Below are positions 1,882 through 27,740 of a DNA stretch of 27,740 nucleotides, piece by piece. This stretch comes from an uncultured Myxococcales bacterium (lineage in GTDB: Bacteria; Myxococcota_A; UBA9042). The notes below the pieces were generated by a model. That model did no database searches. It saw only the letters and a list, made by a program, of their open reading frames with translations, and was not told the origin of the DNA. The stretch is taken from the NCBI GenBank assembly GCA_903917305.1, contig CAIXAA010000264.1, positions 1-27,740 of the forward strand. Reading direction: 5' to 3'. The position numbers and the translations under genes were made by a program. How positions within the stretch are numbered: the stretch's first letter is position 1; each line of letters starts with the position of its first letter.

Positions 1882-3843
1882 TCACAGCGGACGACCGACA
1901 CTGAGGAAGACGCGGTGGTTCTGGTACTGCTGATCCGGCGTCAACCGCATCTGCAAACGATAGTCCAACCGCAGCGTGATCGCCCGCATTCGCCAGAGCA
2001 GCGTTGTTTCGCCGTCCAGCGACTTGTTGCTGATGCTCGGACTCTCCTGGTCGAGGACGCGCCAGCGCCACTCCAGCGCCGCCGGGCTGCTCGCGCTGAT
2101 GTTGCCCTCGGTGAAGGCCTCGTAGTTCTTGCGCAATTCTGTCGGCAAGTCCTGGATGATGGCGCGCACGCCGAAGGACGGTCGCACCGGTCCGATGATG
2201 CCGCGCACCGCCAAAGAGCCGTTGTATTCCGTGGTTGTTACGCCCAGGGTGCGGTAGCGCCGCGTCTCTGCCGTCGCGGAGAGCGAGCCGACGCTGGCGG
2301 ACATGCCGCCGCCCAGCGTCTCGTAGCGGTCGTGCAAGACCGCTTCGCCATCGGTGCGGCGCTGGCTCCAGCGTTCGGACAGCTCCGCGAACATCGTGAT
2401 ATTGTGGAAGTAGGACGAGAAGATGCGCGCGGAGTAGCGGTGATCGACGGCGGTGCGGCCCTGGGAGGTCTGCGTCGTGTACTGGTAGTTGACGTAGACG
2501 CTGTCGCCGTCGGGGATCTCGGTGGCGACAAGTCTGCGAATGTACGTTTGATCTCCGGCCGTGCCCACCTCGTAGTCGATGCCGAGCCGGTACTTCTTGT
2601 TGGTCGTCTGCGACAGCACCACAACGGTCAACACGCTGACATTCAAGTGCATCAGCACCGTCGGCTGCATGCCGTTGAGCGTCTGCACTTCGTTGACCGC
2701 CGACTGCGTGCCGCCCGGCAGACCGCCGTTCTCGCGCGTGCCAAGGAACTGATAGTTGTGCGACATCACAGCGAAAGAGGAGAGCCGCTTGCGGTACATC
2801 ACGTCTTCGCCCAGGGAGCCCAGCAGCTGCGAGCCGCCCGGCACCTGCTGGCCGCCGCCCTGCACCATCGTGCCGAAAAACAGGCTTTGATACAGGCGGT
2901 AGCGCGTGTCGATGCGGCCCAGCTGCTGCAGCGACGACGTCGTCTCGTCGCGCTTGGCGTTGAGCTGGTAGTCGAGGCGCGACTCCAGCTCCGGCAGCCA
3001 ACGCGCGGTGCCGAGCACCGTGAAGTACCCGTCATCACGCCGCATGTCCGAATCGCGCCGAATCCAGCGCAGCCGCGTGTCGATGCGAAAACGCCGCAGT
3101 GTCACATCGCCCGGATAGAGCACGTGGAACAGCGCCAGGTCGTGGCTCAAGTAGTTGAGATCCGTCATCTTGACGTTGTCGTACTTGTAGAAGCGGTACT
3201 CCATCGTCGCGTTCTGCCGCTCGCCGTCGTAGCGCACGTCGCCGGAGCCTTGCATGAACGTGTCGTTGCCGAAGTCCGTGCCGCCCGTGCCGAAGTCGTT
3301 GGCCATCCTCGAGAAGGCCGCGCGGACGGGGAACAGGTTGTTGCGCCAGTTCCAATCGACACCCTCGGTGGTCTTGGTCACGTCGTAATTGTTCACGAAG
3401 TCGCGGCGCACGATGTCCGTGTACTGCCGCGCGAACAGGTGCAGCGGAAAGGCCCGCGATTTCAGAATGGATGTGTCGGCGCGGTACTCGACCTTGGTGG
3501 AGTTGAACGGCACCGTCCGCGTCGTGTCATCGCTCTTCTGCTGCATGAACAGGACCGTGCCGCCCAGCTCCCACGACCAGAACTGCGGGGCCAGGATGCT
3601 GCCGCGCGCCAGGGCGCCAATGCGCTCGCCCACCAGCGCGGAGTAGCTGTGCGAGCTGTCCTTGGCGTCCTTGAACAGGTCGTAACCGCGGTACTGGTAG
3701 CCGGACACCAGCTCGTACGCGCCGCGGATGTCGTCGAAGTGCAGCCACTGCAGCTTCTTTTTCGCGGCCAGCGCCTGCGACGGGCACAGAAGCACCGCGG
3801 CGATCGCCGCCAGGAGCAGCAGCCGCGCGCGCGCCGGCTTCAT
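1882..3843 (-). CDS. Large outer-membrane beta-barrel protein of porin-cytochrome type (653 aa)
   Basis: ATG 3843 overlaps the upstream cytochrome stop (ATGA). Signal peptide MKPARARLLLLAAIAAVLLCPSQALA. Many alternating hydrophobic/polar beta-strands rich in Tyr/Trp/Arg, C-terminal strand RVFLSVGRPL, no heme motifs, and flanked by cytochrome genes. Confidence 0.75.
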   Translation of the reverse strand: MKPARARLLLLAAIAAVLLCPSQALAAKKKLQWLHFDDIRGAYELVSGYQYRGYDLFKDAKDSSHSYSALVGERIGALARGSILAPQFWSWELGGTVLFMQQKSDDTTRTVPFNSTKVEYRADTSILKSRAFPLHLFARQYTDIVRRDFVNNYDVTKTTEGVDWNWRNNLFPVRAAFSRMANDFGTGGTDFGNDTFMQGSGDVRYDGERQNATMEYRFYKYDNVKMTDLNYLSHDLALFHVLYPGDVTLRRFRIDTRLRWIRRDSDMRRDDGYFTVLGTARWLPELESRLDYQLNAKRDETTSSLQQLGRIDTRYRLYQSLFFGTMVQGGGQQVPGGSQLLGSLGEDVMYRKRLSSFAVMSHNYQFLGTRENGGLPGGTQSAVNEVQTLNGMQPTVLMHLNVSVLTVVVLSQTTNKKYRLGIDYEVGTAGDQTYIRRLVATEIPDGDSVYVNYQYTTQTSQGRTAVDHRYSARIFSSYFHNITMFAELSERWSQRRTDGEAVLHDRYETLGGGMSASVGSLSATAETRRYRTLGVTTTEYNGSLAVRGIIGPVRPSFGVRAIIQDLPTELRKNYEAFTEGNISASSPAALEWRWRVLDQESPSISNKSLDGETTLLWRMRAITLRLDYRLQMRLTPDQQYQNHRVFLSVGRPL

Positions 3844-4769
3844 CGGGCGCCTCCGGCCTTGGGCACCTTGCGCGGCGCGCTCTTGGGATCCGGCCGCAGC
3901 ATGTAGCGCTTGCCGGAGCCGTGCGGATCGTGGCACTTCGTGCAGCCCTTCAAGTCTCCGTTTTCATGCGGGGAGCGGCTGCGCAGGTCGGCTTCCAGGT
4001 GGCAGTGGTTGCAGAGGGCGTCGCCGCGGATCTTGAGCAGCGACTTCTCCTTGCCGCCGTGGCCGCCGTGGCACAGCGTGCACATGCCGGCCGCCACCGG
4101 GCCGTGCAGGGGCGCGCGTTTGCGCATATCGTTGAAATGGCAGCGACCGCACACCTGCAGGCCGGTCTTCAAGAACGACGGGCCCTTGCCGCCGTGGCCG
4201 TCGTGGCAGTCGGTGCAGTTGCGGTCTGTTCCCAAGGGCTTGTGGCGCGTGGCGAAGCGCGTCTCTTTGTAGTCGTGGCAGTGGGCGCAGAGCTTCTCGG
4301 GCGTCTCGCGCAGAAGCTTTTGCCATTCGCTTTGATGCGGCTCATGGCAGACGAGGCAGGAGCCATCGCCGACCGGAGCGTGCGCCGGCACCAGGATGAC
4401 CTTCTCCTTCTTGTGGCACGTCAGGCACAGATCCGAAGCGCGCACCAGCGGTCCGCGATCGATGATGTCGTGGCAGGCGCGGCACTGCCGGTTCAGCCAG
4501 GGCGGATGCTCGCTGTGCTGCGGAAAGATGGCGCTTTCGCCGGCATCGCCGGTCAGCGTGTCGGTCTGCACCGTGTCGCGCATGCTCTCCGGCGGCGGCA
4601 CGCCGTCGAAGAAGAACGACAGCACTTCATGGCGTTGTTCTGGCGTGTGGCAGCCCGTCGCCAGCAGCGCGACGATCAGCAGCAAGCAACGGACGGCCGT
4701 GCAGCCTGCGCGGCCTGGGACCGGTGCAGCGCAAGCTGGAGGCTCGTCCGGAGGGTTCGCCACGGCCAC
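3840..4769 (-). CDS. Nonaheme c-type cytochrome lipoprotein (paired CXXCH...H type)
   Basis: Probable GTG start at 4769 with GAGG 6 nt upstream; exact start uncertain. Lipobox LLATG-C. Motifs: CRACH, CLTCH, CLVCH, CAHCH, CTDCH, CGRCH, CTLCH, CNHCH, CTKCH. Confidence 0.88.
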   Translation of the reverse strand: MAVANPPDEPPACAAPVPGRAGCTAVRCLLLIVALLATGCHTPEQRHEVLSFFFDGVPPPESMRDTVQTDTLTGDAGESAIFPQHSEHPPWLNRQCRACHDIIDRGPLVRASDLCLTCHKKEKVILVPAHAPVGDGSCLVCHEPHQSEWQKLLRETPEKLCAHCHDYKETRFATRHKPLGTDRNCTDCHDGHGGKGPSFLKTGLQVCGRCHFNDMRKRAPLHGPVAAGMCTLCHGGHGGKEKSLLKIRGDALCNHCHLEADLRSRSPHENGDLKGCTKCHDPHGSGKRYMLRPDPKSAPRKVPKAGGAR

Positions 4770-4785: not shown

Positions 4786-6015
4786 TCAGGGCGCCTTGGG
4801 CGTCGTAGCCGGCTCGGGGAGATCTTCGACGTCGCCCAAGCCCTTGGGAGTCGTCGGTGCGGCCGTGCCTGATGGCACTGCTGCCTTGGCAGGCGCCGGC
4901 AGGTCCTTCTCCGGTCCCAGCCAATCGCCGAATCCGTAGACATTCACGCGGCGTGCGCCGTACTGGCTGACCACGAGGATGACATGGCGCACCTTGAGCC
5001 GCACATCGGCCAGCTTCTGGAAGCGCTCGATGCCCCGCGCCGAGATGTCGATGCCCGCCGGCAGCACCAGGTTGCCCGGATCGTTGCCCGGGCCGCCAAA
5101 GAACAGCAGCAGTTGTCCATCCTTGTCGAAGATCTGCACGTTCTCGAACGCGGCGTCGACGGCATACAGCCGCCCATCCGGGTCGATCGCCACGCCCTTG
5201 GGCCGCGAGAAGCCGCCAGGACCGTCGCCCAGGCCGCCGTACATGCGCACGTGGGTGCCGTCCGGGTGCAGGCGCTGCACGCGGAAGTTGCCGGTCTCCG
5301 AGACGTAGAGGTCGCCGTCGGGCCCGACCGCGACGTTGGTCGGGATGTAGAACTTGCCCGGATCCTTGCCGCCGCCGCCGATGCGGCGCTTGACGGCGCC
5401 GGTCAGCCGGTCGAACACGATGATGTCGTTGTTCTTGAGGTTGCAGACGTAGACCTCGTCGTCCTTCACCGCGACGCCGGCGGCCTTCATCAAGCCTTCG
5501 GTGCCGTAGGCGCGCAGGAACGACTCGTCGGGGCCGTAGGCGAGCACCTGGTTGCGGGTGCCGTCCGCGACGTAGATGGTGCCGTCGGGCGTCGAGGTGA
5601 CCTGCATCGGTTGGCGCGCGCGGCCGCCGCCGGTGTTGCCCTTGAGCGGGCGGAACTCGTGGGCGGCCAGATCGAGAACGAAGATCTCGTGCGCACTTGC
5701 GTCCGACACGACGACGCGATCGCCGACGAGTGAGGCGCTGTACGGCTTGCCCAGCCCGCCCTTGGACGCGTCGTCCTTGCCGACGACGAACTCCGACAGG
5801 GCGCTGGTTTGCTCGATGTCCTCGGCCGACGTGTAGGACGTGAGGAACTGGATGCGCGGCCGGTTGGGCAGGGGCGGGTAGAAGACGGCGCTGCCCTTGC
5901 CGTTGTCGGTCGCGCCGCTGCACGCGGACAGCAGGGCGATCAGCGCACAAACGGCCCAGGATCCGAGGCGGGTCACTGGATGGTCAGACTTGGGATGGGG
6001 ATGAGGACCGGGCAT
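4786..6015 (-). CDS. NHL-repeat 6-bladed beta-propeller lipoprotein
   Basis: ATG 6015 with AGGA 7 nt upstream. Lipobox LLSA-C. N-terminal FYPPLPNRPRIQFL. Repeated NHL blades: PTNVAVGPDGDLYVSETGNFRVQ, RPKGVAIDPDGRLYAVDAAFENVQIF, QPMQVTSTPDGTIYVADGTRNQV. Confidence 0.9.
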   Translation of the reverse strand: MPGPHPHPKSDHPVTRLGSWAVCALIALLSACSGATDNGKGSAVFYPPLPNRPRIQFLTSYTSAEDIEQTSALSEFVVGKDDASKGGLGKPYSASLVGDRVVVSDASAHEIFVLDLAAHEFRPLKGNTGGGRARQPMQVTSTPDGTIYVADGTRNQVLAYGPDESFLRAYGTEGLMKAAGVAVKDDEVYVCNLKNNDIIVFDRLTGAVKRRIGGGGKDPGKFYIPTNVAVGPDGDLYVSETGNFRVQRLHPDGTHVRMYGGLGDGPGGFSRPKGVAIDPDGRLYAVDAAFENVQIFDKDGQLLLFFGGPGNDPGNLVLPAGIDISARGIERFQKLADVRLKVRHVILVVSQYGARRVNVYGFGDWLGPEKDLPAPAKAAVPSGTAAPTTPKGLGDVEDLPEPATTPKAP

Positions 6016-6257
6016 GACGGCATCCTTGTCGGCGGCCGGACGCTGTTGGCGGCCGGGGTCTGCAGCCGGGTCCGGAAGTCCCTGGCCGAGGCAGGGCGGA
6101 GCGCAGTGCAGCGTTGGCGGCGTCCGGACTTGCGACCGCAATGCACAGGATGTGCACGGTGCTGCTCACTAGCAGAAGGCACTGAGGTGGTCAACGCGAC
6201 GGAGCGCCCAGCCGGCCGCGTTCCCTTCCTCGCCTGGCGCACGGGCCAGGCACCGCC

Positions 6258-6281
6258 CCCCGCCGCCCGAAGACGACGGGG
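6258..6281 (-). other. Stable RNA hairpin with a C(UUCG)G tetraloop 3' of the omcE-like gene (mRNA stabiliser or partial terminator); second hairpin at 6232-6251
   Basis: Minus strand reads CCCCGTCGTC-TTCG-GGCGGCGGGG (10-bp stem, 2 G-U pairs), followed by GCCTGGC-N6-GCCAGGC. No U-tract follows. Confidence 0.6.
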
Positions 6282-6297
6282 AGCAGCACCGCAACAA

Positions 6298-6933
6298 TTA
6301 CTTGTTGTGGCAGGACAGGCACAGCGCGCTGCCGTTGTTCAGCATGCGCAGGAACTTGCCCTTGGAGTTGTCATGGACGCTATGGCACGTGGCGCACTGC
6401 ATCTGGGCTCCGAAGAGCGGCAGAATGCTGGCTGCGTCGACGTACTTGTCGCTGACCGGGCTCTTGAGGCCACCGTCCGACGTGGCCAGGGCCGCGTCGT
6501 ACGTGAACGAAATCGGGTGATCATTGGTCAGATCAGTCCCGAGCTTCGCGCCACCCGGATCCATGAAGTGCGTACCAGCGTTGCCGCCGTACGAGTCCAG
6601 CGCGACGGTACCGTCGTGGCAGGACAGGCACAGCTTGGACGTACCCGTCGGCTGACCGACGACTGCGTTCAAGGTAGCGCTGGTGTAAGCACTAAAGGTC
6701 GCAACAGTCACAGCGTGGTTCCACAGCGGGGCGCCCGGGACGGCCTGAGCGTTGTGTGGCGTGTGACAGAAAATGCAGATCTGGGTTGTACCCCAGCCCT
6801 GCGCGGAAAGGTCGTGGGCCGTACCAGCGATGCCAGCTTGCGCATCACGGGCCGGAGCCAGAACCACAAGCAACAGACCGGTCAGCACCATTGCTGCCGT
6901 CGTCAAGAAAGGAAACCGGCTAAGAGATCTCAT
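6298..6933 (-). CDS. omcE: OmcE-like tetraheme c-type cytochrome, candidate cytochrome-nanowire subunit (211 aa, ~178 aa mature)
   Basis: ATG 6933 with GGGAGG 7 nt upstream. Sec signal ending AQA. Motif order matches Geobacter OmcE as recalled: HDLS, CIFCHTPHNAQ, PLWN, SKLCLSCHDG, LGTDLTNDHP, CATCHSVHDN, FLR, GSALCLSCH at the extreme C-terminus. Confidence 0.8.
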   Translation of the reverse strand: MRSLSRFPFLTTAAMVLTGLLLVVLAPARDAQAGIAGTAHDLSAQGWGTTQICIFCHTPHNAQAVPGAPLWNHAVTVATFSAYTSATLNAVVGQPTGTSKLCLSCHDGTVALDSYGGNAGTHFMDPGGAKLGTDLTNDHPISFTYDAALATSDGGLKSPVSDKYVDAASILPLFGAQMQCATCHSVHDNSKGKFLRMLNNGSALCLSCHNK

Positions 6934-6956
6934 TACCATTCCTCCCAATGTGGGTC

Positions 6957-7005
6957 GACGACCCGTCTTGCTGCGCATGCAGCGGAACGAGTAGACGACC
7001 CGTCT
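6957..7005. repeat. 12-bp direct repeat GACGACCCGTCT (6957-6968 and 6994-7005), each copy self-complementary (GACG-N3-CGTC), in the omcE-like 5' UTR
   Basis: Two exact copies read directly, 37 nt apart, between the sigma54 motif and the RBS. Confidence 0.7.
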
Positions 7006-7017
7006 GCGAGGCTGTGG

Positions 7018-7033
7018 TGCACACGGCGTGCCA
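7018..7033 (-). promoter_or_regulatory. sigma54 (-24/-12) promoter for the omcE-like operon
   Basis: Minus strand TGGCACG-CCGT-GTGCA with exact GG-N10-GC spacing, ~85 nt upstream of ATG 6933 and next to a sigma54 activator gene. Confidence 0.75.
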
Positions 7034-7142: not shown

Positions 7143-8621
7143 CTACTTGAGCAGGCCGAACTTGCGCAGCCGGTAGCGCAGGAGGTCGCGGCTCACGCCG
7201 AGCAGGTTCGCCGCCTGCACCTGGTTGCCACCGCAGCGCAACATGGCCTGGCGCAAGATCTCTTGTTCGAGGTCGTGCAGGCCGATGGTGCCGTCGAGCT
7301 TGAGTTGCAGGACGACCTCTTCGCCTTCCGCCACCGGCGACTCCGCCGCGTGCGCGGTCGGATGCGGCAGCGGGGGCGGCGGGGGCGCAGCCCCGGCAGG
7401 CAGCTCCGGCGGAAGAGGCAACGCCGTCCGCAGCCTCTGGATCTCGTCGGGCAGCACATCGATGCGCACGAGCGGATCGCGGTCGGACAGCACGATCGCC
7501 GCCTCGATCACGTGGCGCAGCTCGCGCACGTTGCCCGGCCAGGCGAAGGCACGCAGCACGGCGCGCGCCTCCGGCGAGAAGCCGGTGACCTGCGAACCCA
7601 TCTCGCGTGCGAAGATGCCGAGGAAGTGATCCGCCAGAAGATCAATGTCTTGCACACGGTCGCGCAGCGGCGGCAGGTTCAGCGTGAGGACCTTCAAGCG
7701 GTAGTACAGGTCCTCGCGGAACTTGCCGGTCGCCACCAGATCGCGCAGGTCGCGGTGCGTCGCCGTCACGATGCGCACGTCCGCCTGGACCTCGCGCGTG
7801 CTGCCCAGGCGTCGGTAACTGCGCGTTTCGATGAAGTGCAGCAGCTTGGCCTGCATCTCCACCGGCATGTCGCCGATCTCGTCGAGCAGCAGCGTGCCGC
7901 CGTTGGCCTCTTCGAGCAGACCGCGCTTGGCGACGCGCGCATCGGTGAAGGCGCCACGCTCGTGACCCATCAGCTCGCTCTCGATCAGCGTCTGCGGCAC
8001 CGCCGCGCAGTTGATCTCGACGAACGGCGAATGCTTGCGGTCACTCAGCTCGTGCAGCGCGCGAGCGAACACGCTCTTGCCCACGCCCGTCTCGCCCAGC
8101 ATCAGCACGGTGCTGCGCGGCGTGTGCGCGAAGCGGCGCAGTCGGTCGAGCAGCAGCCCCATCGACGGGTGGGCGCTGTAGATGCCGAGCCGCGCCAGAT
8201 CCTCGGTCGAGGGCAGTTCCGCCGGCGCGGGCGCATTGACCGCTTGGATGCGCGCCAGCGCGTCGAACAGGTTGTCCGCTTCGAACGGCTTGGAGAGGTA
8301 GTCGTTGGCGCCCAGGCGCATCGCCTCGACCACCGTCGGCACATCGCCAAAAGCGCTGGTCACGATGACCTTGGGGCGGTCGCTCGGCGACAGCTCCTGC
8401 AGCAGATCGAGGCCGCGGCCGTCCGGCAGACGGATGTCCAGCAGGATCACGTGGGGCTGCGATCGCGCCAGCACTTCGCGCGCCTCAGCGAGCGTGGCGG
8501 CAGCCGTTGGGATATAACCCCAGCGTTTCAAGTCTTTGCACGTGGACCAGGACAGCAGCTTCTCGTCCTCGATGACCAGGACGTGCGTTCCGGGTTCTAC
8601 GCGACCAGCAGCGATGGGCAT
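7143..8621 (-). CDS. NtrC-family sigma54-dependent response regulator (REC - AAA+ - Fis-type HTH)
   Basis: REC: VLVIEDE...[10 protein letters not shown]...YLSKPF. Walker [15 protein letters not shown] loop, Walker [35 protein letters not shown]: [20 protein letters not shown]. Start taken at ATG 8621 (AAGGT upstream). Confidence 0.95.
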
Positions 8622-8764
8622 CGGATGAACCTTGCACCGGCATGTCTGCGCGGCGCCCTTCGAGGGCCGGGACGTTACCACACCCTCGCGTGCGTAGCCA
8701 TGATCCATGCAGGTTGCGCGCTGACTGTGTGTGGAGCGTTTCACTTTGATGCGACTTCGTGACT

Positions 8765-8844: not shown

Positions 8845-11800
8845 ATGTGCGCCGCACCTCACAATCCGCGGTCTGGAGTCTGGCGTGCCGCCGGCCCGTG
8901 GCGTTGGATCGTGTGGGTCGACTCGCTCGTCTCGACCGTGCCTGGCCGCGTGTTCCTCGCGACCCTGGCCGTGCTCGTCGTCACCAGTTACGTGTTGATG
9001 AACGTGCTGTTCCAGGAGGACCGCTTCCACGCGCTGACCGAGCCGCAGCGCCAGGCGGACACGGAGGCGGCGCAGCGCACGCTGGAACTCTCTCTGCTCA
9101 AACAGGATCCACGGCAGGTGGACGCGGACCTCGTCGCGATCAGCCGCCGCCTGCCGAGCATCGTGCGCATCGACGTGGCAGGTCCGGATGATCTTGTGCG
9201 CTATTCGACGTTGCCGCAGGCGCTGGGGCGGCCGCCGACCCTGCTCGACGCAGCGACGGCGCGGATGGCGGCAGCGCACGGCGTTTCCATCGAACGCTCC
9301 GGCGATCCGGGGCGCCACGTCCTGGTGCGCCCGGTGCTGCTGCCGCCCACGTGCGCCAATTGCCACCGCGGTTCGTTCGACCCTGATCTCGGGCGCATGT
9401 ACGTGGTCACGGACAACGTCGCGGCGATCCAGGCGCTGCGGGGTACGACGCTGTCCGTGCTGCGCCTGCTGGCCGTGATCGTGCTGGTCCTCGCGATCGT
9501 GCTGGGCATCTACGTGCACCTGAGCTTCATCGTCCCCGCGCGGCGTTTTGCCGATCACCTGCGCCAATTGGGCGATGGTCCGGCGCCGGGGATGGTCGAT
9601 GTGGCCACGCTGCCGGCCGAACTGCGCCAGATCGCGCACGCCTTCAACCGCGGCGTCGAGAGCCTCATCGCCGCGCGCCAGGAGGTCGAGCGCCTGCAGC
9701 AGGAGCGCCTCGCGCACGTCGAGCGGCTGGTCAGCATCGGCCGCTTGTCCGCGATGCTGGCGCACGAGATTCGCAACCCGTTGGCCGGCATCTCGAGCGC
9801 CGTGCGGATCCTGGCCGAGGAACTGCCGATCAAGGAAGAACATCAGGAGATCGTGGATGAATTGCAGCGGCAGGTGAAGCGCTTGTCGCGCACCTTGACC
9901 GAGTTGCTGTCCTCCTCGCGGCCCCACGACCCGGTGCCCGGTCGCCTGTGCCCGCAGGAGGCGGTGGCGCGCGCGGCGCACATCGTGCAGCCGGCGTTCG
10001 AGCGGCGCGGTCTGCACTTCGTCGTGAGCATGGAGCCCGACACGCCGGCGGTGTACGCGGACGAGGAGTGCCTCGTGCAGGTGCTGCTCAACCTGCTGGT
10101 CAATGCCGAGCAGGCGGTGGCCGGCGCGGGGCTGGTGCGCGTCGACGTGCACCGCTCGTCGGACAACGACGGGATGGTGGCGATCACGGTGGCGGACAAT
10201 GGTCCGGGCATGCCGCCGGAGGTGCTGGCGCGCGTCGGCCAGCCGTTCTTCACGACCAAGAAGGAAGGCACGGGCTTGGGGCTGGCGATCAGCCGCGAGA
10301 TGGTGGAGCGCATGGGCGGCCGGCTGCTGGTCGCCTCGCCGCCGGGGCAGGGCGCGAGCGTGACGGTGATGCTGCCGGCCTTTGCCGACCAGGCGGCGCC
10401 GCAGAACCCGGAGCTGGACGTGGAGCCGAACGCGACGGTCGGGCTCATGCCGCGCCGCCACTGGAAGACGCCTGGGACCGGGACGGAGCTGGGCATCGGC
10501 CTGCTGGCGCTGCTGGGTGCGCTGTGGCTGCTGCCGGCGCCGGCGCTGGCGGCGCCGCGCAAGGTGCCGGTGGCGGCCAAGCCGCTGCCCAAGCCGGGGC
10601 CTTCGTGCGTGACGTCGGCGTGCCACAAGTCGGTGCTCAAGAAGCCGGATCGGCATGCGATGTTGCGGCCTTCGACCTGCTCCTTGTGCCACCAGCCGAT
10701 GCGGCGGCCGGGCGTGGTTCCGCGCGAAGGTGCGCCGGAGCCGTTCGGCACGGAGCTTGCCCTGCAGAACAGCAAGTCGCACCCGGCGGGTGGTTTCCAG
10801 CCCGTGCGCGAGCGGTTGCGGGCGCGCATGGGGCCGCCGCTGCCGACCAGCGGGCCGATCGGCGGCGTGGGCGGTTCACCGGAGGCGGGGCCGCACAGTC
10901 GCGCAGCACGCGGCAATTGCACGCTTTGTCATGATCCGCACGCGGCGGCCAAGGACCACCTGCTGCGCAAGCCGGTGCCGGGGCTGTGCATGATGTGCCA
11001 CCAGAAGACCTGGCCGCGCACGAAGTTCACCCACGCGCCGGCGGCGATGGGCGATTGCCTGGACTGCCACGTGCCGCACGCCGGCCGGATCCGGCCCAAC
11101 CTGCGCACCACCCAGCCGGAGCTGTGCTTCGATTGCCACACGGAGATGAAGGAGCGCCTGTCCAAGGTGCGCCTGCATCCGCCCGTCGCGGAGCGCTGCA
11201 GCCTGTGCCACGGCCCCCACGGCGGCAACCACCGCATGTTCTTCAAGGAGGAGGGCAATGCGCTGTGCCTGTCCTGCCACAAGGCGATCGAGCAGCACGC
11301 CAAGACCGCGCCGTTCAAGCACAAAGCCCTGACCAAGGCGTGCACGTCCTGCCACGATCCGCACGGCACGCCGGAGCCGCGCCTGCTGCGCCAGCCCATG
11401 GTTGCGCTGTGCACGTCCTGCCACGAGAAGGTCGGCAGCGAGGTCGGCGCGGCGCATTTCCTGCACGGCGCCCTCGACCGCGGCAGCTGCACCGGCTGCC
11501 ACGATCCGCACGGCGGCAGCTTCCAGGCGCTGCTGCGCGGCCCGTTCCCGGTCAAGAAGCCGTACCAGGCGTTCGAGGGCGATCCGTACGGCCTGTGCTT
11601 TCTCTGCCACGAGCGGATGCTGCTCGAGAGCGGCAAGCCGCCGCGCACCGGCTTTCGCAACGGCGACAAGAACTTGCACCATGTTCACGTGGCGCGCGGC
11701 GAGAAGGGGCGCTCCTGCATGCTGTGCCACTCCCCGCATGGCGCCGACCAGCCGCACATCCTGCGCGAGGAGATGCCGTTCGGCTCGGCGAAACTGCCCA

Positions 11801-11931
11801 TGGAGTTCACGGCTTCACCTGATGGTGGCAGCTGCAAGTCGGCGTGCCACGAGGTGCGCAAGTACGCGCGCCGCGACATCGTGAAGGTGGCGCCGTTGCC
11901 CGCCGCGCCGACGCCGACCACCAAGAAGTAA
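8845..11931 (+). CDS. Sensor histidine kinase (TM - heme-c periplasmic sensor - TM - HAMP - HisKA - HATPase_c) fused in frame to a signal-like segment and a 12(+2)-heme cytochrome c
   Basis: Periplasmic PPTCANCH; H-box LAHEIRNPL; N-box QVLLNLLVNA; G1 DNGPGM; FFTTK-EGTGLGL. Then LGIGLLALLGALWLLPAPALA, CVTSACH, 12 CXXCH and CKSACH. No stop codon between the kinase and cytochrome parts. Confidence 0.88.
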   Translation: MCAAPHNPRSGVWRAAGPWRWIVWVDSLVSTVPGRVFLATLAVLVVTSYVLMNVLFQEDRFHALTEPQRQADTEAAQRTLELSLLKQDPRQVDADLVAISRRLPSIVRIDVAGPDDLVRYSTLPQALGRPPTLLDAATARMAAAHGVSIERSGDPGRHVLVRPVLLPPTCANCHRGSFDPDLGRMYVVTDNVAAIQALRGTTLSVLRLLAVIVLVLAIVLGIYVHLSFIVPARRFADHLRQLGDGPAPGMVDVATLPAELRQIAHAFNRGVESLIAARQEVERLQQERLAHVERLVSIGRLSAMLAHEIRNPLAGISSAVRILAEELPIKEEHQEIVDELQRQVKRLSRTLTELLSSSRPHDPVPGRLCPQEAVARAAHIVQPAFERRGLHFVVSMEPDTPAVYADEECLVQVLLNLLVNAEQAVAGAGLVRVDVHRSSDNDGMVAITVADNGPGMPPEVLARVGQPFFTTKKEGTGLGLAISREMVERMGGRLLVASPPGQGASVTVMLPAFADQAAPQNPELDVEPNATVGLMPRRHWKTPGTGTELGIGLLALLGALWLLPAPALAAPRKVPVAAKPLPKPGPSCVTSACHKSVLKKPDRHAMLRPSTCSLCHQPMRRPGVVPREGAPEPFGTELALQNSKSHPAGGFQPVRERLRARMGPPLPTSGPIGGVGGSPEAGPHSRAARGNCTLCHDPHAAAKDHLLRKPVPGLCMMCHQKTWPRTKFTHAPAAMGDCLDCHVPHAGRIRPNLRTTQPELCFDCHTEMKERLSKVRLHPPVAERCSLCHGPHGGNHRMFFKEEGNALCLSCHKAIEQHAKTAPFKHKALTKACTSCHDPHGTPEPRLLRQPMVALCTSCHEKVGSEVGAAHFLHGALDRGSCTGCHDPHGGSFQALLRGPFPVKKPYQAFEGDPYGLCFLCHERMLLESGKPPRTGFRNGDKNLHHVHVARGEKGRSCMLCHSPHGADQPHILREEMPFGSAKLPMEFTASPDGGSCKSACHEVRKYARRDIVKVAPLPAAPTPTTKK

Positions 11932-22902: not shown

Positions 22903-24111
22903 ATGAACGCCGCACCTCCACCCCAGCCTGCTGCGGACGCGCCGGGACCCTTTCGACGTTTGAAGTACGCCACGGCGATTGCGCTGGCGGGCATCGCGAT
23001 CGGCGCTCTCGCTTGGGCGCAAGCCGGAGACAAGGTGCCCGTTGCTGGCCCGAAGGCAGAAGTCGCCAAGCCCACCGACGCTGCCAAGGATGGCGCGAAG
23101 CCTGCGGCAGCCGCCGCGCCGGACAAAGCGCATGTGGCGGCCAAGCCGGCGACGCCTCCGAGCGGCATCGTCAAGGGCGGCAACGTCTCCGCGTGGAACA
23201 TCACGGATACCGCGAAGGTTTTTGCCGACGCCAAGCGCCTCGGGCTGGACACCATCACCGTGCCGGTGCGCGTCGACATGGCCGCCGCCAACGCGTCGGA
23301 AGTGACGCTCGATGCGGCAAGCCTTGAATTCGCCAAGAAGATCGTCGAGAGCAACCCTTCCTACAACTACATCATCGAACCGTACCCCTGGATCGACAAC
23401 GGCAATGTGCCGGAGACCGACCTGGACCCGGCCGACAAGGCGGCGTGGTTCGTCTCCTACCAGGGCGCGCTCGTGTCGCTGGCCAAGCATTTCCCAACGG
23501 CTTGGGGCCTCTACGTCGCCTCGAACCTCGTCAAGATCGAGGATCAGTCGGCCAGCTGGATCGCGCTGGTCAAGGGCGTTCGCGCGGCATTTCCCGGCAA
23601 GATCATCTACCGCACGCAATGGTGGGCCACCGCCGCGTGGGAACCGAGCACGGTCAAGGCCTACCAGGCCAAGTTGAACAATCCGCTGTTTGGCGCGGTC
23701 GACGTCATCGCCATCGCCTCCTACTTCGAGCTCAGCGAGACCGCGGCACCGACGACGGCGGACATCAAGGCCGCGCTGCGGTCGACCACGGTCTTCGCCC
23801 GCAAACAGGACGTGTATGCCGAGGTCATGGCGCTTGGGGCCAAGTGGCAAAAGCCGATCTTCCTTGGGGAACTCAGCTGCCCATCGGTGGATTTCGGCGC
23901 GCAGAACCCGTGGGATCCGGCCGCGAGCGAGACGCCGAACGCCGACATCCAACGCAACTACCTGACCGCGTACCTCGAGACCTTCGCTCGAGATCCCGCG
24001 AAGTTCATGGGTTTTTCGTTGTTCACCATCGGCCATCCGACCGTTACGCCCTACGAATTGGCCCCGTCGGCGGCGGAGTACGTGCGCAGCTTCAAGTTGC
24101 CGCACCGCTAG
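22903..24111 (+). CDS. Exported GH113-like TIM-barrel glycoside hydrolase homolog
   Basis: Hydrophobic signal segment and Ala/Pro/Lys linker. Then IIEPYPWI, WFVSYQGAL, WIALVKGVRAAFPGKIIY, VDVIAIASYFEL, KPIFLGELSCPS (nucleophile-Glu motif like GH113 F-F-x-E-x-G-C-P-S), QRNYL. Confidence 0.65.
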   Translation: MNAAPPPQPAADAPGPFRRLKYATAIALAGIAIGALAWAQAGDKVPVAGPKAEVAKPTDAAKDGAKPAAAAAPDKAHVAAKPATPPSGIVKGGNVSAWNITDTAKVFADAKRLGLDTITVPVRVDMAAANASEVTLDAASLEFAKKIVESNPSYNYIIEPYPWIDNGNVPETDLDPADKAAWFVSYQGALVSLAKHFPTAWGLYVASNLVKIEDQSASWIALVKGVRAAFPGKIIYRTQWWATAAWEPSTVKAYQAKLNNPLFGAVDVIAIASYFELSETAAPTTADIKAALRSTTVFARKQDVYAEVMALGAKWQKPIFLGELSCPSVDFGAQNPWDPAASETPNADIQRNYLTAYLETFARDPAKFMGFSLFTIGHPTVTPYELAPSAAEYVRSFKLPHR

Positions 24112-24139
24112 GCGTCCAGCCCCATTTGGAGACACCGAA

Positions 24140-25342
24140 GTGAGCAACCGCCGTCCGCGAATCGCAGTCATTCTCGGCACTCGCCCGGAGTACCTCAAGC
24201 TGGCGCCCGTCATCGCGGAGCTGCGGAGGTTTCGCTCCTACGCGCACACCCAGGCCATCTTCACCGGCCAACACCGTGAGATGCTGGCGGGTCTCGACGA
24301 GTTGTTCGACCTCGAGCAGCACATCCCCCTGGCCGTCAACAACGCGCGGCCCAACCTGCCGGGCTTGACGGCAGCGCTGATTGCCGCGCTGGATGGCGAG
24401 TTCTGCCGCGACAAGTTCGATGCCGTTGTCGTGCAAGGGGATACGACGACAGCGTTTTGCGCGACCTTGACCGCCTTCTATCACCGCATTCCGGTGGCGC
24501 ATGTGGAGGCCGGGCTGCGCACGGGAAACCTGTGCGAGCCGTTCCCCGAGGAGTTGAACCGCCAGCTCGTGGCGCGCATGGCGCGCTGGCACTTCGCGCC
24601 GACGGCGGAGGCGCAGCAGAACCTGCTGCGCGAGGGCGTGGCGCAGCAAGCCATCGAAGTGACGGGCAATACCATCATCGACACGCTGCACTTCGTGCGG
24701 GATCGCAAGATCCCACCCGACTACGAAACGGATCTGCTGCGCGAAGAGGCGCCGGAGCTCGCCGAGGCGCTGGCCGTGGTGCGCGCGCGTCATGGCAAGA
24801 CCTTGGCGCTGCTCACGATTCACCGCCGCGAGAACCACGGGGACAAGCTCGATGCCTTCTTCCGCATGATTCGCTCCTTGGCGGCGGCGCATCCGGACCA
24901 TCACCTCGTCTACCCCTACCACCTGAACCCGGAAGTGCGCCTCAAGGCCTTCCAGTTCCTCTCGGAAATCCCCAACGTCCACCTCGTGGCGCCGTTGTCC
25001 TACCGGCCGTTCCTCTACCTCATGGGGCAGGTCGACTTCGCGCTGAGCGACTCCGGCGGCCTGCAGGAGGAGTTCCCCTGCTTCGCCAAGCCGCTGCTCG
25101 TGCTGCGCGACGTGACGGAGCGGCCCGAGGTCATCGAAGCCCAGATGGGCAAGCTGGTCGGCGTCGAGCCGAATGTCGTGTATCCGGCCGCGGTTGACCT
25201 GATCGCCTGTGCCGAGGCGGGGCGCGCGCCGAGCTGGTTCGTGCCGGGTCCGAATCCGTTTGGCGATGGCCGCGCGTCGGAGCGCATCGTGGCGCGGATC
25301 TTGCGCGACATTGGCCAGACGTCCGACAGCTACGTCATCTAG
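24140..25342 (+). CDS. wecB: Non-hydrolysing UDP-N-acetylglucosamine 2-epimerase
   Basis: GTRPEYLK, TGQH, VQGDTTTAF, HVEAGLR, PFPEELNR, TGNTIID, TIHRREN, DSGGLQEE, NPFGDGRASERI. GTG start with GGAGA RBS. Confidence 0.95.
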   Translation: MSNRRPRIAVILGTRPEYLKLAPVIAELRRFRSYAHTQAIFTGQHREMLAGLDELFDLEQHIPLAVNNARPNLPGLTAALIAALDGEFCRDKFDAVVVQGDTTTAFCATLTAFYHRIPVAHVEAGLRTGNLCEPFPEELNRQLVARMARWHFAPTAEAQQNLLREGVAQQAIEVTGNTIIDTLHFVRDRKIPPDYETDLLREEAPELAEALAVVRARHGKTLALLTIHRRENHGDKLDAFFRMIRSLAAAHPDHHLVYPYHLNPEVRLKAFQFLSEIPNVHLVAPLSYRPFLYLMGQVDFALSDSGGLQEEFPCFAKPLLVLRDVTERPEVIEAQMGKLVGVEPNVVYPAAVDLIACAEAGRAPSWFVPGPNPFGDGRASERIVARILRDIGQTSDSYVI

Positions 25343-25406
25343 CCGCGACGAACGAGGCAAAGCGAAAGCGAAAGCGCTTACCCCGAGCCGTGTTCCGGGT
25401 CCTGCG

Positions 25407-26705
25407 TCAGTCGAACTCCAGCTCGTCGACAAACGTCCACGACCCTGGCGTCACGAAGCTGATCTTGACGAACTTTGCGGTCTGCAAGGGAAATGCCAGA
25501 TCGATGTCGCCGCGCTTGCCATCCGCGATGGCCGGTTCACTGCCGTCCGCGAGCTTGAACGGCAGGGCCGTGGTCCACTTGATCCCGTCCATGCTGAAAC
25601 CCAAATCGATCTCAGGAGGTTGCGAGACTGCGCCATCTTTGCGGTTGTTGAGGCCGAGGCGCACGAACGTCAGGTTGCGCGGTTTGGCGAACTGCACGAA
25701 CACGATTGGCGTCAAGGACGTCCACGCCACCCACTCGTAGCCGGGGCCGTTGCCCAGATCGCCGCTCCAGTCATCGCCGCCCTTGGCGCCGTCGAGCAAC
25801 TGCCCCGTGGCGTAGGTGCCGAATCCTGAGGGATCGCTCGCCTTGCCGCTGACGGCGATGTCGTGCGGTTCGTCGTAGTAGCAGACTGCGCCGCAATCGG
25901 GCTTGACGTTGAAGCGGTACAGCGTGGCGCCGCAGGTGCTCTGCTCGTTGATCTTGCCGTCGCAGTTGTCGTCAAAAGGCGTGTCGCAGTCGTCCTTGGC
26001 TGGCAAGACCTGGCCCAACTGCAGCGCGCAGGCGCAGTCGACCACGCCAGCGCACACGTTGGCCGCGCAGACGTCGTCGTGCGTGCACGGATTGCCGTCG
26101 TCGCACGTGTGGGTGTTGAGGCTGTGGGCGCACGCGCCGGTTGCCGGTACGCAAGCGTCGTTCGTGCATGGATTCTGGTCGTCGCAGGACATGGTCGCGC
26201 CGCTGGGCAAGCACGCGCCGCCGAAGCACGCGTCGCCAAAGGTGCACGGGTTGCCATCGTTGCAGAGCGCGGTGTTGGGTTCGTGCACGCAGCCCTTGAC
26301 GGTATCGCAGGAGTCCGCGGTGCAGCCGTTGCCGTCCTCGCAGACGGTCGCCTGCGTGGCCAGGTGCACGCATCCCGTCGATTTGTCGCAGGAGTCGACG
26401 GTGCAGGGGAATCCGTCGTTGCAGTCGAACACGACGCCGGTGCAGACGCTTCCCACGCAATGATCGCCCGTCGTGCAGGCGTTGCCGTCCTGGCAGTCGC
26501 CGGTGCGCACCGCGTGCTTGCAGTCGCCGGTGCTGGAACAACTCTCGGTCGTGCAAGGGTTTCCGTCGTCACACTGGCCGACGTAGCAGGGGCCGAAGAC
26601 CACGGCGTCGGGCCCGGTGGAGCAGGATGCCAGGAGCAGCGCGAAGCAGGCAACAACGCTCGCCGCCAAGGCTTTCGTGCACCGAAGAGAAGTCCGTGTC
26701 ACCAT
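25407..26705 (-). CDS. Lipoprotein with 7 Cys-rich CxDGNxCT repeats, a DDNCDGKINE acidic motif and a C-terminal discoidin/F5-8-like beta-sandwich
   Basis: ATG 26705 with GGGAG RBS. Lipobox LLAS-C. Repeats: CDDGNPCT, CQDGNACT, CNDGFPCT, CEDGNGCT, CNDGNPCT, CDDQNPCT, CDDGNPCT. C-terminal GQLLDG...GYEWVAW...FSMDGIKW...WTFVDELEF. Confidence 0.85.
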   Translation of the reverse strand: MVTRTSLRCTKALAASVVACFALLLASCSTGPDAVVFGPCYVGQCDDGNPCTTESCSSTGDCKHAVRTGDCQDGNACTTGDHCVGSVCTGVVFDCNDGFPCTVDSCDKSTGCVHLATQATVCEDGNGCTADSCDTVKGCVHEPNTALCNDGNPCTFGDACFGGACLPSGATMSCDDQNPCTNDACVPATGACAHSLNTHTCDDGNPCTHDDVCAANVCAGVVDCACALQLGQVLPAKDDCDTPFDDNCDGKINEQSTCGATLYRFNVKPDCGAVCYYDEPHDIAVSGKASDPSGFGTYATGQLLDGAKGGDDWSGDLGNGPGYEWVAWTSLTPIVFVQFAKPRNLTFVRLGLNNRKDGAVSQPPEIDLGFSMDGIKWTTALPFKLADGSEPAIADGKRGDIDLAFPLQTAKFVKISFVTPGSWTFVDELEFD

Positions 26706-26778
26706 CGATCTCCCGCCCGCGGCCCAACCGAGTATGTCGACTTCGCCTGGCCCGGTCAACGCGAACGCGGGGTTGCGG

Positions 26779-27738
26779 CTAGTAGGAGAGCGTCGCCCGC
26801 AGCGCCGGACCGCGCGCCCGCTCCGCATCGGCAAAGCGGTACGTGGCGTTGATCTCCAGCCAACCTGGCGGCGCGCGGTAGCGATCCTCGCCAAACCACA
26901 AGCGCATGCTCAGCCCGGGCCCCACTGCGTCGATCAGCTCGTCGATGGCCTTGCTGTCGTACTCGACCGCGACAAACGCATGGGGAAACAAGGTCATGCG
27001 TGTGAAGTTCGGCACCGGCCACGTGACGCCGTAGCGGACCTCCGTGCCGACCAGCATCTGCCCGGCGTTCAGGTAGTACGCCGCTTCGCCGTAGACCTGC
27101 CAGCTCGCCCAGTTCGTGCGATCCAGGCGCTGATCCCCGCCGGCGCCGGTCGAATAGCCGATGCGAAACAGCCAGTCGTTGACCGAGCTTTGCCCGACCG
27201 CGAACAGCCTCTCGGCGGTGAAGACGATGTTCTGGCTTTCCAACGGCTTGTAGCGCACGCCGGCCGTCTCCTGCAGCGTCTTCCAGCCGGTCGGACCGCT
27301 GATGCCGTTGCGGAAGTTCTCGTAGGCGCGCGCAAAGAGTTGCAGCGTCTGGCCATTTCGATAGCCGATGACCGGCGGTTGCCAGTACAGCTCGACGCCG
27401 CCCTGCCAGACATCGAGGGCGCCCGCGTGGTAGGGCGAGCCAAGCATGACGCCCCAGGTCCGCTCCATTGTCTCGATTTCACGCCGAAAACCGTAGGTGC
27501 GCTGCGGGCTGAACGATTGCTCGAGGCCGTCGAGGTCCAGGCTGAAACGAAAGAGGGCAATCGCGGTCGCATTGTCTCCCAGGCGCTTGGCGGCATAGGC
27601 GGCGTCGGCGTAGTGGAACGCCTTGCCGGAGCCCAGTGCAAAGCCGCGCTGGAACGACGCGAGCCCGTTGGCGTCGTCATGCTGGCGCAAGTATGCGTAA
27701 CCAATGTTGAGTTGCTTGTCGCCGCGCGGGTCGCTGCC
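26779..27738 (-). CDS. nfrA: NfrA-family outer-membrane protein (TPR region plus C-terminal barrel; phage N4 receptor/glycan export pore), 5'-truncated
   Basis: Frame is open to the window edge. TPR-like LNIGYAYLR...YADAAYAAKRLGDNATAIALFR. NfrA_C-like motifs GVRYKPL...FTAER, DWLFRIGYS, WQVYGEAAYY, GPGLSMRLWFGEDRYRAPP. Confidence 0.75.
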   Translation of the reverse strand, partial: GSDPRGDKQLNIGYAYLRQHDDANGLASFQRGFALGSGKAFHYADAAYAAKRLGDNATAIALFRFSLDLDGLEQSFSPQRTYGFRREIETMERTWGVMLGSPYHAGALDVWQGGVELYWQPPVIGYRNGQTLQLFARAYENFRNGISGPTGWKTLQETAGVRYKPLESQNIVFTAERLFAVGQSSVNDWLFRIGYSTGAGGDQRLDRTNWASWQVYGEAAYYLNAGQMLVGTEVRYGVTWPVPNFTRMTLFPHAFVAVEYDSKAIDELIDAVGPGLSMRLWFGEDRYRAPPGWLEINATYRFADAERARGPALRATLSY

Positions 27739-27740
27739 GG

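Follow-up and report, generated by a model that had tools for sequence, protein, structure and literature searches.

The gene at positions 6298-6933 (minus strand) of the window, the whole 27,740-nt stretch of DNA analysed here, encodes what sequence comparison identifies as an ordinary member of the known OmcE family. Its product is a Sec-exported c-type tetrahaem cytochrome that most likely serves as the main building block of an "insulated" cytochrome filament outside the cell, which would be assembled via the genes downstream of it. We assign this reading a probability of roughly 0.7. Polymerisation is inferred from homology and gene context, while haem loading and the extracellular location of the protein are presumed. 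The host, probably a Myxococcota-like bacterium of lake and peat, thereby joins the organisms that possess the OmcE nanowire kit; a 2026 survey names five phyla, and Myxococcota is none of them (mBio 2026, PMC13712944). The finding leaves our knowledge of how such filaments work unchanged.

An open frame on the minus strand spans 7119 to 6298. The preferred start is the ATG at 6933, which lies 7 nt downstream of a GGGAGG at 6946-6941; an alternative ATG two codons further upstream is only 1 nt from this element. The resulting precursor has 211 residues (stop codon 6298-6300), and both closest homologues are likewise 211 residues long. The N-terminus, MRSLSR followed by a hydrophobic stretch, reads as a Sec-type signal peptide of 33 residues (6835-6933, minus strand) with predicted cleavage between AQA and G, leaving a mature protein of about 178 residues. 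Family conservation begins at I35/G37/H40, directly past the signal peptide. The GC3 of the coding sequence is 0.76, in a metagenome-assembled genome (MAG) of 998 contigs and 5.57 Mb with 68% GC whose longest contig is the window. For Mfd, encoded on another contig of this bin, the best named matches are in MAGs labelled Myxococcales or Deltaproteobacteria (62-70% identity), with only 43% identity to Anaeromyxobacter; by bin membership, an uncultured Myxococcota lineage is thus the probable host.

Haem sites and relationship to solved filaments

A phmmer search against all PDB chains returned two significant matches, namely 7TFS (E 7.7e-32, query residues 15-211 versus chain residues 9-232) and 9YUQ (E 1.8e-24), the remaining matches being insignificant. 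The first is the cryo-EM filament of Geobacter sulfurreducens OmcE (GSU0618; Wang et al. 2022, Nat Microbiol), and the second is the OmcE homologue DSOUD_2954 of Desulfuromonas soudanensis WTL, which forms bundled filaments (mBio 2026, PMC13712944). The likeness to OmcE proposed in the first-pass annotation of this DNA thus extends over the full length of the protein. By hand count, identity to 7TFS is about 45%, with ca. 95 identities over the 197 query residues in the alignment. At 41% identity, the two solved filament formers are no closer to one another, which places our protein within the divergence range where filament formation is known to be kept.

All four CXXCH motifs noted earlier are present and are found on the minus strand as CIFCH (site 1, C53-H57, 6763-6777), CLSCH (site 2, C102-H106, 6616-6630), CATCH (site 3, C180-H184, 6382-6396) and CLSCH (site 4, C205-H209, 6307-6321). 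As had been stated, the last of these sits at the extreme C-terminus, two residues from the end (CLSCHNK followed by the stop codon). A two-residue tail past site 4 is seen in at least 95% of relatives and in both 7TFS and 9YUQ. The additional histidines that had been proposed as axial ligands are also all found and align with both solved OmcEs: H40 in HDLS (6814-6816), seven residues into the mature protein, H60 in CHTPH directly after site 1 (6754-6756), H139 in NDHP (6517-6519) and H187 in CHSVH directly after site 3 (6373-6375). H40 and H139 are distal-ligand candidates. Across the 120 nearest relatives, each of which carries exactly four CXXCH motifs, all motif cysteines and histidines as well as these four histidines are invariant. 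Four CXXCH motifs and four further haem-ligating histidines are reported to be conserved across OmcE homologues, and the eight conserved positions found here are the eight haem-ligand positions named in that work (mBio 2026, PMC13712944). Three sources agree that in OmcE one interfacial haem is completed by a histidine of the adjacent subunit. The first-pass annotation had singled out absence of this bridging histidine as the observation that would speak against its proposal; since all four non-motif ligand histidines are present and invariant, the bridging residue is not missing.

A ninth conserved histidine, H73 in PLWNH (6715-6717, minus strand), did not appear in the earlier list. It is clade-specific: 99% of the 120 nearest relatives have it, as do 71 of 150 diverse representatives, while both solved OmcEs and one paralogue of the same genome carry an arginine at this position. 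A contact of H73 with a haem propionate is purely a guess.

Paired_CXXCH_1 (PF09699; 44.1 bits, cut-off 20.6), which is a generic haem-pair module and not a functional family, and TIGR01905 (39.2 bits, cut-off 25.2) both match residues 177-211. Cytochrome_C7 (28 bits) and Cytochrom_c3_2 (22 bits, below cut-off) are likewise confined to the C-terminal 35 residues and neither has a stretch that is significant by itself. As the Pfam matches extend over the last haem pair only, we rejected assignment as a c3/c7 periplasmic carrier.

Gene cluster and filament assembly

The subunit gene is the first of a co-oriented block on the minus strand. The next gene downstream encodes an NHL-repeat beta-propeller lipoprotein (4786-6015; lipobox LLSAC) and is followed by those for a DmsE/MtrA-like lipoprotein cytochrome with nine CXXCH motifs that is presumably periplasmic (3840-4769), a 653-residue haem-less outer-membrane beta-barrel (1882-3843) and a 450-residue UetJ-like cytochrome with nine CXXCH motifs (9(+1) haem; 512-1864). 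A PPIase gene is located at 2-496. Directly upstream, on the same strand, lies a gene for a sigma-54-dependent response regulator (7143-8744, start codon uncertain). It is adjoined on the plus strand by an open reading frame for a 1028-residue sensor kinase and multihaem fusion (8845-11931), with complete HAMP/HisKA/HATPase domains and a C-terminal multihaem domain comprising six Paired_CXXCH_1 stretches. Similar kinase-cytochrome matches adjoin the regulator in many related loci.

Searching for barrel homologues by word matching yielded just two proteins, and homologues for structure prediction were taken from syntenic loci. Using 30 of these, AF2 produced a model (pLDDT 82) that contains more than 30 antiparallel strands of considerable length. 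Foldseek placed MtrB of the Mtr porin-cytochrome complex (6R2Q_B) at the top of the PDB matches, followed by LptD and pilus ushers. The number of strands and the top match together indicate that the 1882-3843 product, as modelled, is a very large MtrB-like outer-membrane barrel.

The N-terminal half of the 512-1864 cytochrome is a complete OmcE-like module, as its first ca. 215 residues match the subunit at E 4.5e-34. Its motifs run HDL, CAFCHTPH, PLWN, CLSCHDG, NDHP, CTSCHDAH and CRTCH, and are followed by five further haem sites. Desulfuromonadia operons encode no OmcE-like candidate for a filament tip or anchor (mBio 2026, PMC13712944). By virtue of its OmcE-like module, the 512-1864 cytochrome is such a candidate and might form the base or the tip of the filament.

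Relatives of the subunit gene were scanned in one genome per species, giving at least 597 loci, and synteny was counted in the best 80. The MAGs that contribute these 80 loci bear the labels Verrucomicrobia, Bacteroidota, Ignavibacteria, Calditrichota, Gemmatimonadota, Acidobacteriota, Planctomycetes, beta- and gamma-proteobacteria and others. Among them, a propeller gene on the same strand follows within 1.5 kb downstream in 66 of 73 cases and a periplasmic cytochrome in 52 of 68, while a barrel homologue occupies the expected position in 45 loci. Further, a cytochrome of ca. 560-600 residues with 11 haems and an OmcE-like N-terminal module is found in about 40 of the 43 loci with full flanks. 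Judging by this synteny across phyla, the cluster itself, and not the gene alone, is an old and mobile unit. The protein search at 50% identity, for its part, gave some relatives, among them P0124 (1400 residues), P0125 (965) and P0126 (459), in which the complete query is matched between two and four times within a single polypeptide. Such multi-match relatives include proteins with 12, 16 and 20 CXXCH motifs and look like tandem OmcE modules covalently joined, similar to a short piece of filament in one chain.

Cluster content is in good agreement with known systems. Barrel, propeller lipoprotein and multihaem cytochromes are the companions used to recognise nanowire-competent OmcE homologues (mBio 2026, PMC13712944), and the OmcE locus of G. 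sulfurreducens likewise combines them with a secreted subunit that carries four CXXCH motifs, four distal histidines and a CXXCH-x-K C-terminus. Unlike that locus, the cluster described here has no glycosylation gene block beside it within the window, its regulation seems to rely locally on sigma-54 and a two-component system, and it belongs to a Myxococcota-like MAG instead of a member of the Desulfuromonadia. DSOUD_2954 is likewise of a compact, apparently unglycosylated type, and its locus follows the same "smallest cluster" pattern of cytochromes, propeller, OmcE and barrel. Published minimal clusters contain two propeller genes, whereas one is present here. The uetABCDEFGHIJ cluster of 'Ca. 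Tenderia electrophaga' and other Tenderiales (bioRxiv 10.1101/2022.05.06.490989) comprises the tetrahaem UetA, a PPIase, a barrel, NHL proteins and the undecahaem UetJ. Judged by its parts list, it resembles the present cluster, in which the 512-1864 gene supplies the counterpart of the large extracellular cytochrome with ca. 11 haems. It additionally contains three trihaem c7 proteins and a cupredoxin, none of which is found in this window. A further parallel is OmcS of G. sulfurreducens with its osc operon, reported to comprise an insulated filament with inter-subunit His ligation and companion genes for folding and porin-type secretion (Shen et al. 2025). OmcS, however, is a hexahaem protein with no recognisable sequence similarity to OmcE and is absent from the phmmer PDB matches of our protein.

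If the protein polymerises as OmcE does, the subunits would be stacked in head-to-tail fashion and the four bis-His haems of each would join into one continuous chain, with one haem per interface completed by a histidine of the neighbouring subunit. Export and assembly would proceed via the downstream genes, the subunit passing through or mounting on the barrel. The haem-rich periplasmic lipoprotein would sit inside the large MtrB-like barrel, the NHL propeller lipoprotein would act as a helper, and the 512-1864 cytochrome with its 9-10 haems could serve as base or tip. The physiological role of OmcE filaments is disputed. Electrons are proposed to move outward in Geobacter, and inward flow, i.e. 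electron uptake instead of export, has been proposed for the uet clusters of Tenderiales (bioRxiv 10.1101/2022.05.06.490989).

The main alternative is that the protein remains a monomer or small oligomer and serves as a surface or periplasmic electron shuttle, or as a terminal reductase at the mouth of a porin-cytochrome conduit, without forming long filaments. We consider this unlikely. ESMFold2 runs with two copies and four of the eight haems needed (pLDDT ca. 91) reached scores of 0.10 and 0.04, below the mark of 0.32, a result that speaks neither for nor against a dimer. An AF2 monomer model without haems, based on a 35-sequence alignment, reached a pLDDT of 43, which is expected for a coil-rich protein that is shaped by its haems. 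In favour of the alternative, databases label the relatives only as "cytochrome c3 family", and the proposal for UetA is that it partners the undecahaem cytochrome outside the cell, its polymerisation being considered no more than possible (bioRxiv 10.1101/2022.05.06.490989). Two paralogues in the same genome (90% and 70% identical) have no helper genes nearby, and such orphans suggest that some OmcE-family members may have other roles. Against this stands the fact that both experimentally studied members form filaments despite their mutual divergence. In addition, the invariance of the four distal histidines includes whichever is donated to the neighbour, and the conserved two-residue tail past haem 4 fits a conserved end-to-end contact. 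A filament subunit thus remains the preferred reading.

Phage-borne copies and subunit length

Orphan OmcE-like genes were also found in several jumbo phages. The IMG/VR record UViG_3300009031_000221 (536,053 bp, CheckV 100% complete, GC 53%) contains an orphan OmcE-like gene (P0004, 205 residues; 10001-10618, plus strand, in extract L088/L089). The mature part of its product is 82% identical to our protein without gaps and retains all ligand histidines. A Baseplate_J gene is present on the record and Terminase_6N was not detected. The copy is surrounded by genes for HNH endonucleases, RtcB and an Apyc1-like hydrolase, along with numerous small ORFs without assignment. Propeller, barrel and partner cytochrome genes are absent within 10 kb on either side. 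Four further IMG/VR contigs of 11-304 kb contain lone copies with 42-51% identity; one of them has a tail sheath gene and one has terminal repeats. In our literature search we came across no published account of phage-borne nanowire cytochromes.

A more speculative proposal is that the compact PLWNH clade may be a distinct and very widespread nanowire type with its own cytochrome of 9-11 haems built on an OmcE module, which could form the filament base or tip, and that its subunit gene has been captured by jumbo phages. The operon of this clade does contain its own OmcE-module cytochrome, which the Geobacter and Desulfuromonas loci, as described, do not. We nevertheless regard the proposal as improbable. 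If true, phages might add to, cap or remodel the conductive filaments of their hosts during infection.

The first-pass annotation had further suggested a minimal, streamlined filament former that is shorter than OmcE. We compared cores, defined as the stretch from the first distal histidine to the last CXXCH. Intervals from the first distal histidine to site 1 and between successive sites are 13/49/78/25 residues here (core 170) and 20/52/98/25 in G. sulfurreducens OmcE (core 200); the D. soudanensis OmcE core has 190 residues, both reference values being hand counts from the phmmer alignment. Of the "OmcE spacing" that had been claimed, the collinear order of motifs therefore stands, while only the last interval is identical to that of G. 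sulfurreducens OmcE. Relative to the latter, 20 residues fewer lie between sites 2 and 3, 7 before site 1 and 3 between sites 1 and 2. The residues missing with respect to the solved OmcEs are loop residues, most of them from the stretch that separates haem sites 2 and 3.

Although the protein is shorter than both solved OmcEs, by 30 and 20 core residues, this size is the norm of its clade. For the nearest 120 relatives (54-99% identical), the core has a median length of 169 residues (range 161-179) and the precursor one of 204. In the best 150 cluster representatives at 50% identity, cores range from 156 to 208 residues with a median of 179, and 21% have 172 residues or fewer, which puts our protein in the lower quartile and above the minimum. 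Precursors of 190-220 residues predominate in a family that comprises at least 7,475 clusters at 90% identity (E 1e-5) and 5,313 at 50% identity (E 1e-3). Judging from these sequences, the long Geobacter OmcE is the outlier and a core of about 170 residues the common state. On account of this length distribution we rejected a uniquely minimal subunit, and an exceptional, streamlined protein distinct from ordinary OmcE seems very improbable to us. The lengths collected for the family are useful when picking a small subunit for expression or engineering.

Expression, paralogues and remaining loci

The stretch is present in lake-water metagenomes, and near-identical subunit transcripts occur in peat and sediment RNA libraries. 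RNA contigs with ca. 99% identity cover 6360-6995, i.e. most of the coding sequence and a leader of about 60 nt, in three peat and one freshwater-sediment metatranscriptomes. RNA depth on the flanking propeller gene and regulator is zero or nearly so, which argues against DNA carry-over and fits an abundant subunit transcript. Given the intact frame, Shine-Dalgarno element, signal peptide, GC3, thousands of homologues and RNA contigs, we rejected a pseudogene or mis-called ORF with chance or decayed motifs, in favour of which nothing was found, as practically out of the question.

The RNA contigs end at 6988-6995. In one run, adapter sequence, which we take to be Illumina adapter, follows directly after 6995 and marks a fragment end. 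A sigma-54-like -24/-12 element, TGGCAC-N5-GTGC, lies at 7019-7033 (minus strand), 86 nt upstream of the ATG. This motif occurs six times in the window versus 3.2 expected, which is not above chance, so that only its position counts; it would set a sigma-54 start a few bases upstream of the RNA end at 6995, which is suggestive. A pattern scan called neither a canonical terminator nor a sigma-70 promoter around the gene. Downstream, 8 nt past the stop codon and between the subunit gene and the helper genes, we found a perfect 19-bp GC-rich hairpin with a UUCG loop and without a U-tract (6249-6290, minus strand). The corresponding 96-nt stretch has an MFE of -56.4 kcal/mol (z -2.9). A long stem also follows the stop codon of the phage copy (z -3.6). 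As paralogues in the same genome are inconsistent in this respect, no conserved RNA element is claimed. Together, RNA pattern and hairpin fit a structural subunit transcript made in excess over those of the helpers, without proving it.

The MAG encodes three paralogues. The 90% identical copy (contig C412, 4205-4828, minus strand) adjoins a T4 gp19-like tail-tube gene, while two SurA/PpiC-type PPIase genes and lexA come after the 70% identical copy (contig C235, 7814-8470, plus strand). The third (contig C946, 3485-4294, plus strand) is longer and of the PLWNR type; an NHL gene follows it at the contig end, and this copy may belong to a second cluster. At the far end of the window, 22903-27740 encodes a GH113-like enzyme, a UDP-GlcNAc 2-epimerase, a protein with Dictyostelium CTDC repeats and a discoidin-like domain, and a protein with an NfrA C-terminal domain. 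This part is a probable surface-glycan locus that has no connection with the cytochromes.
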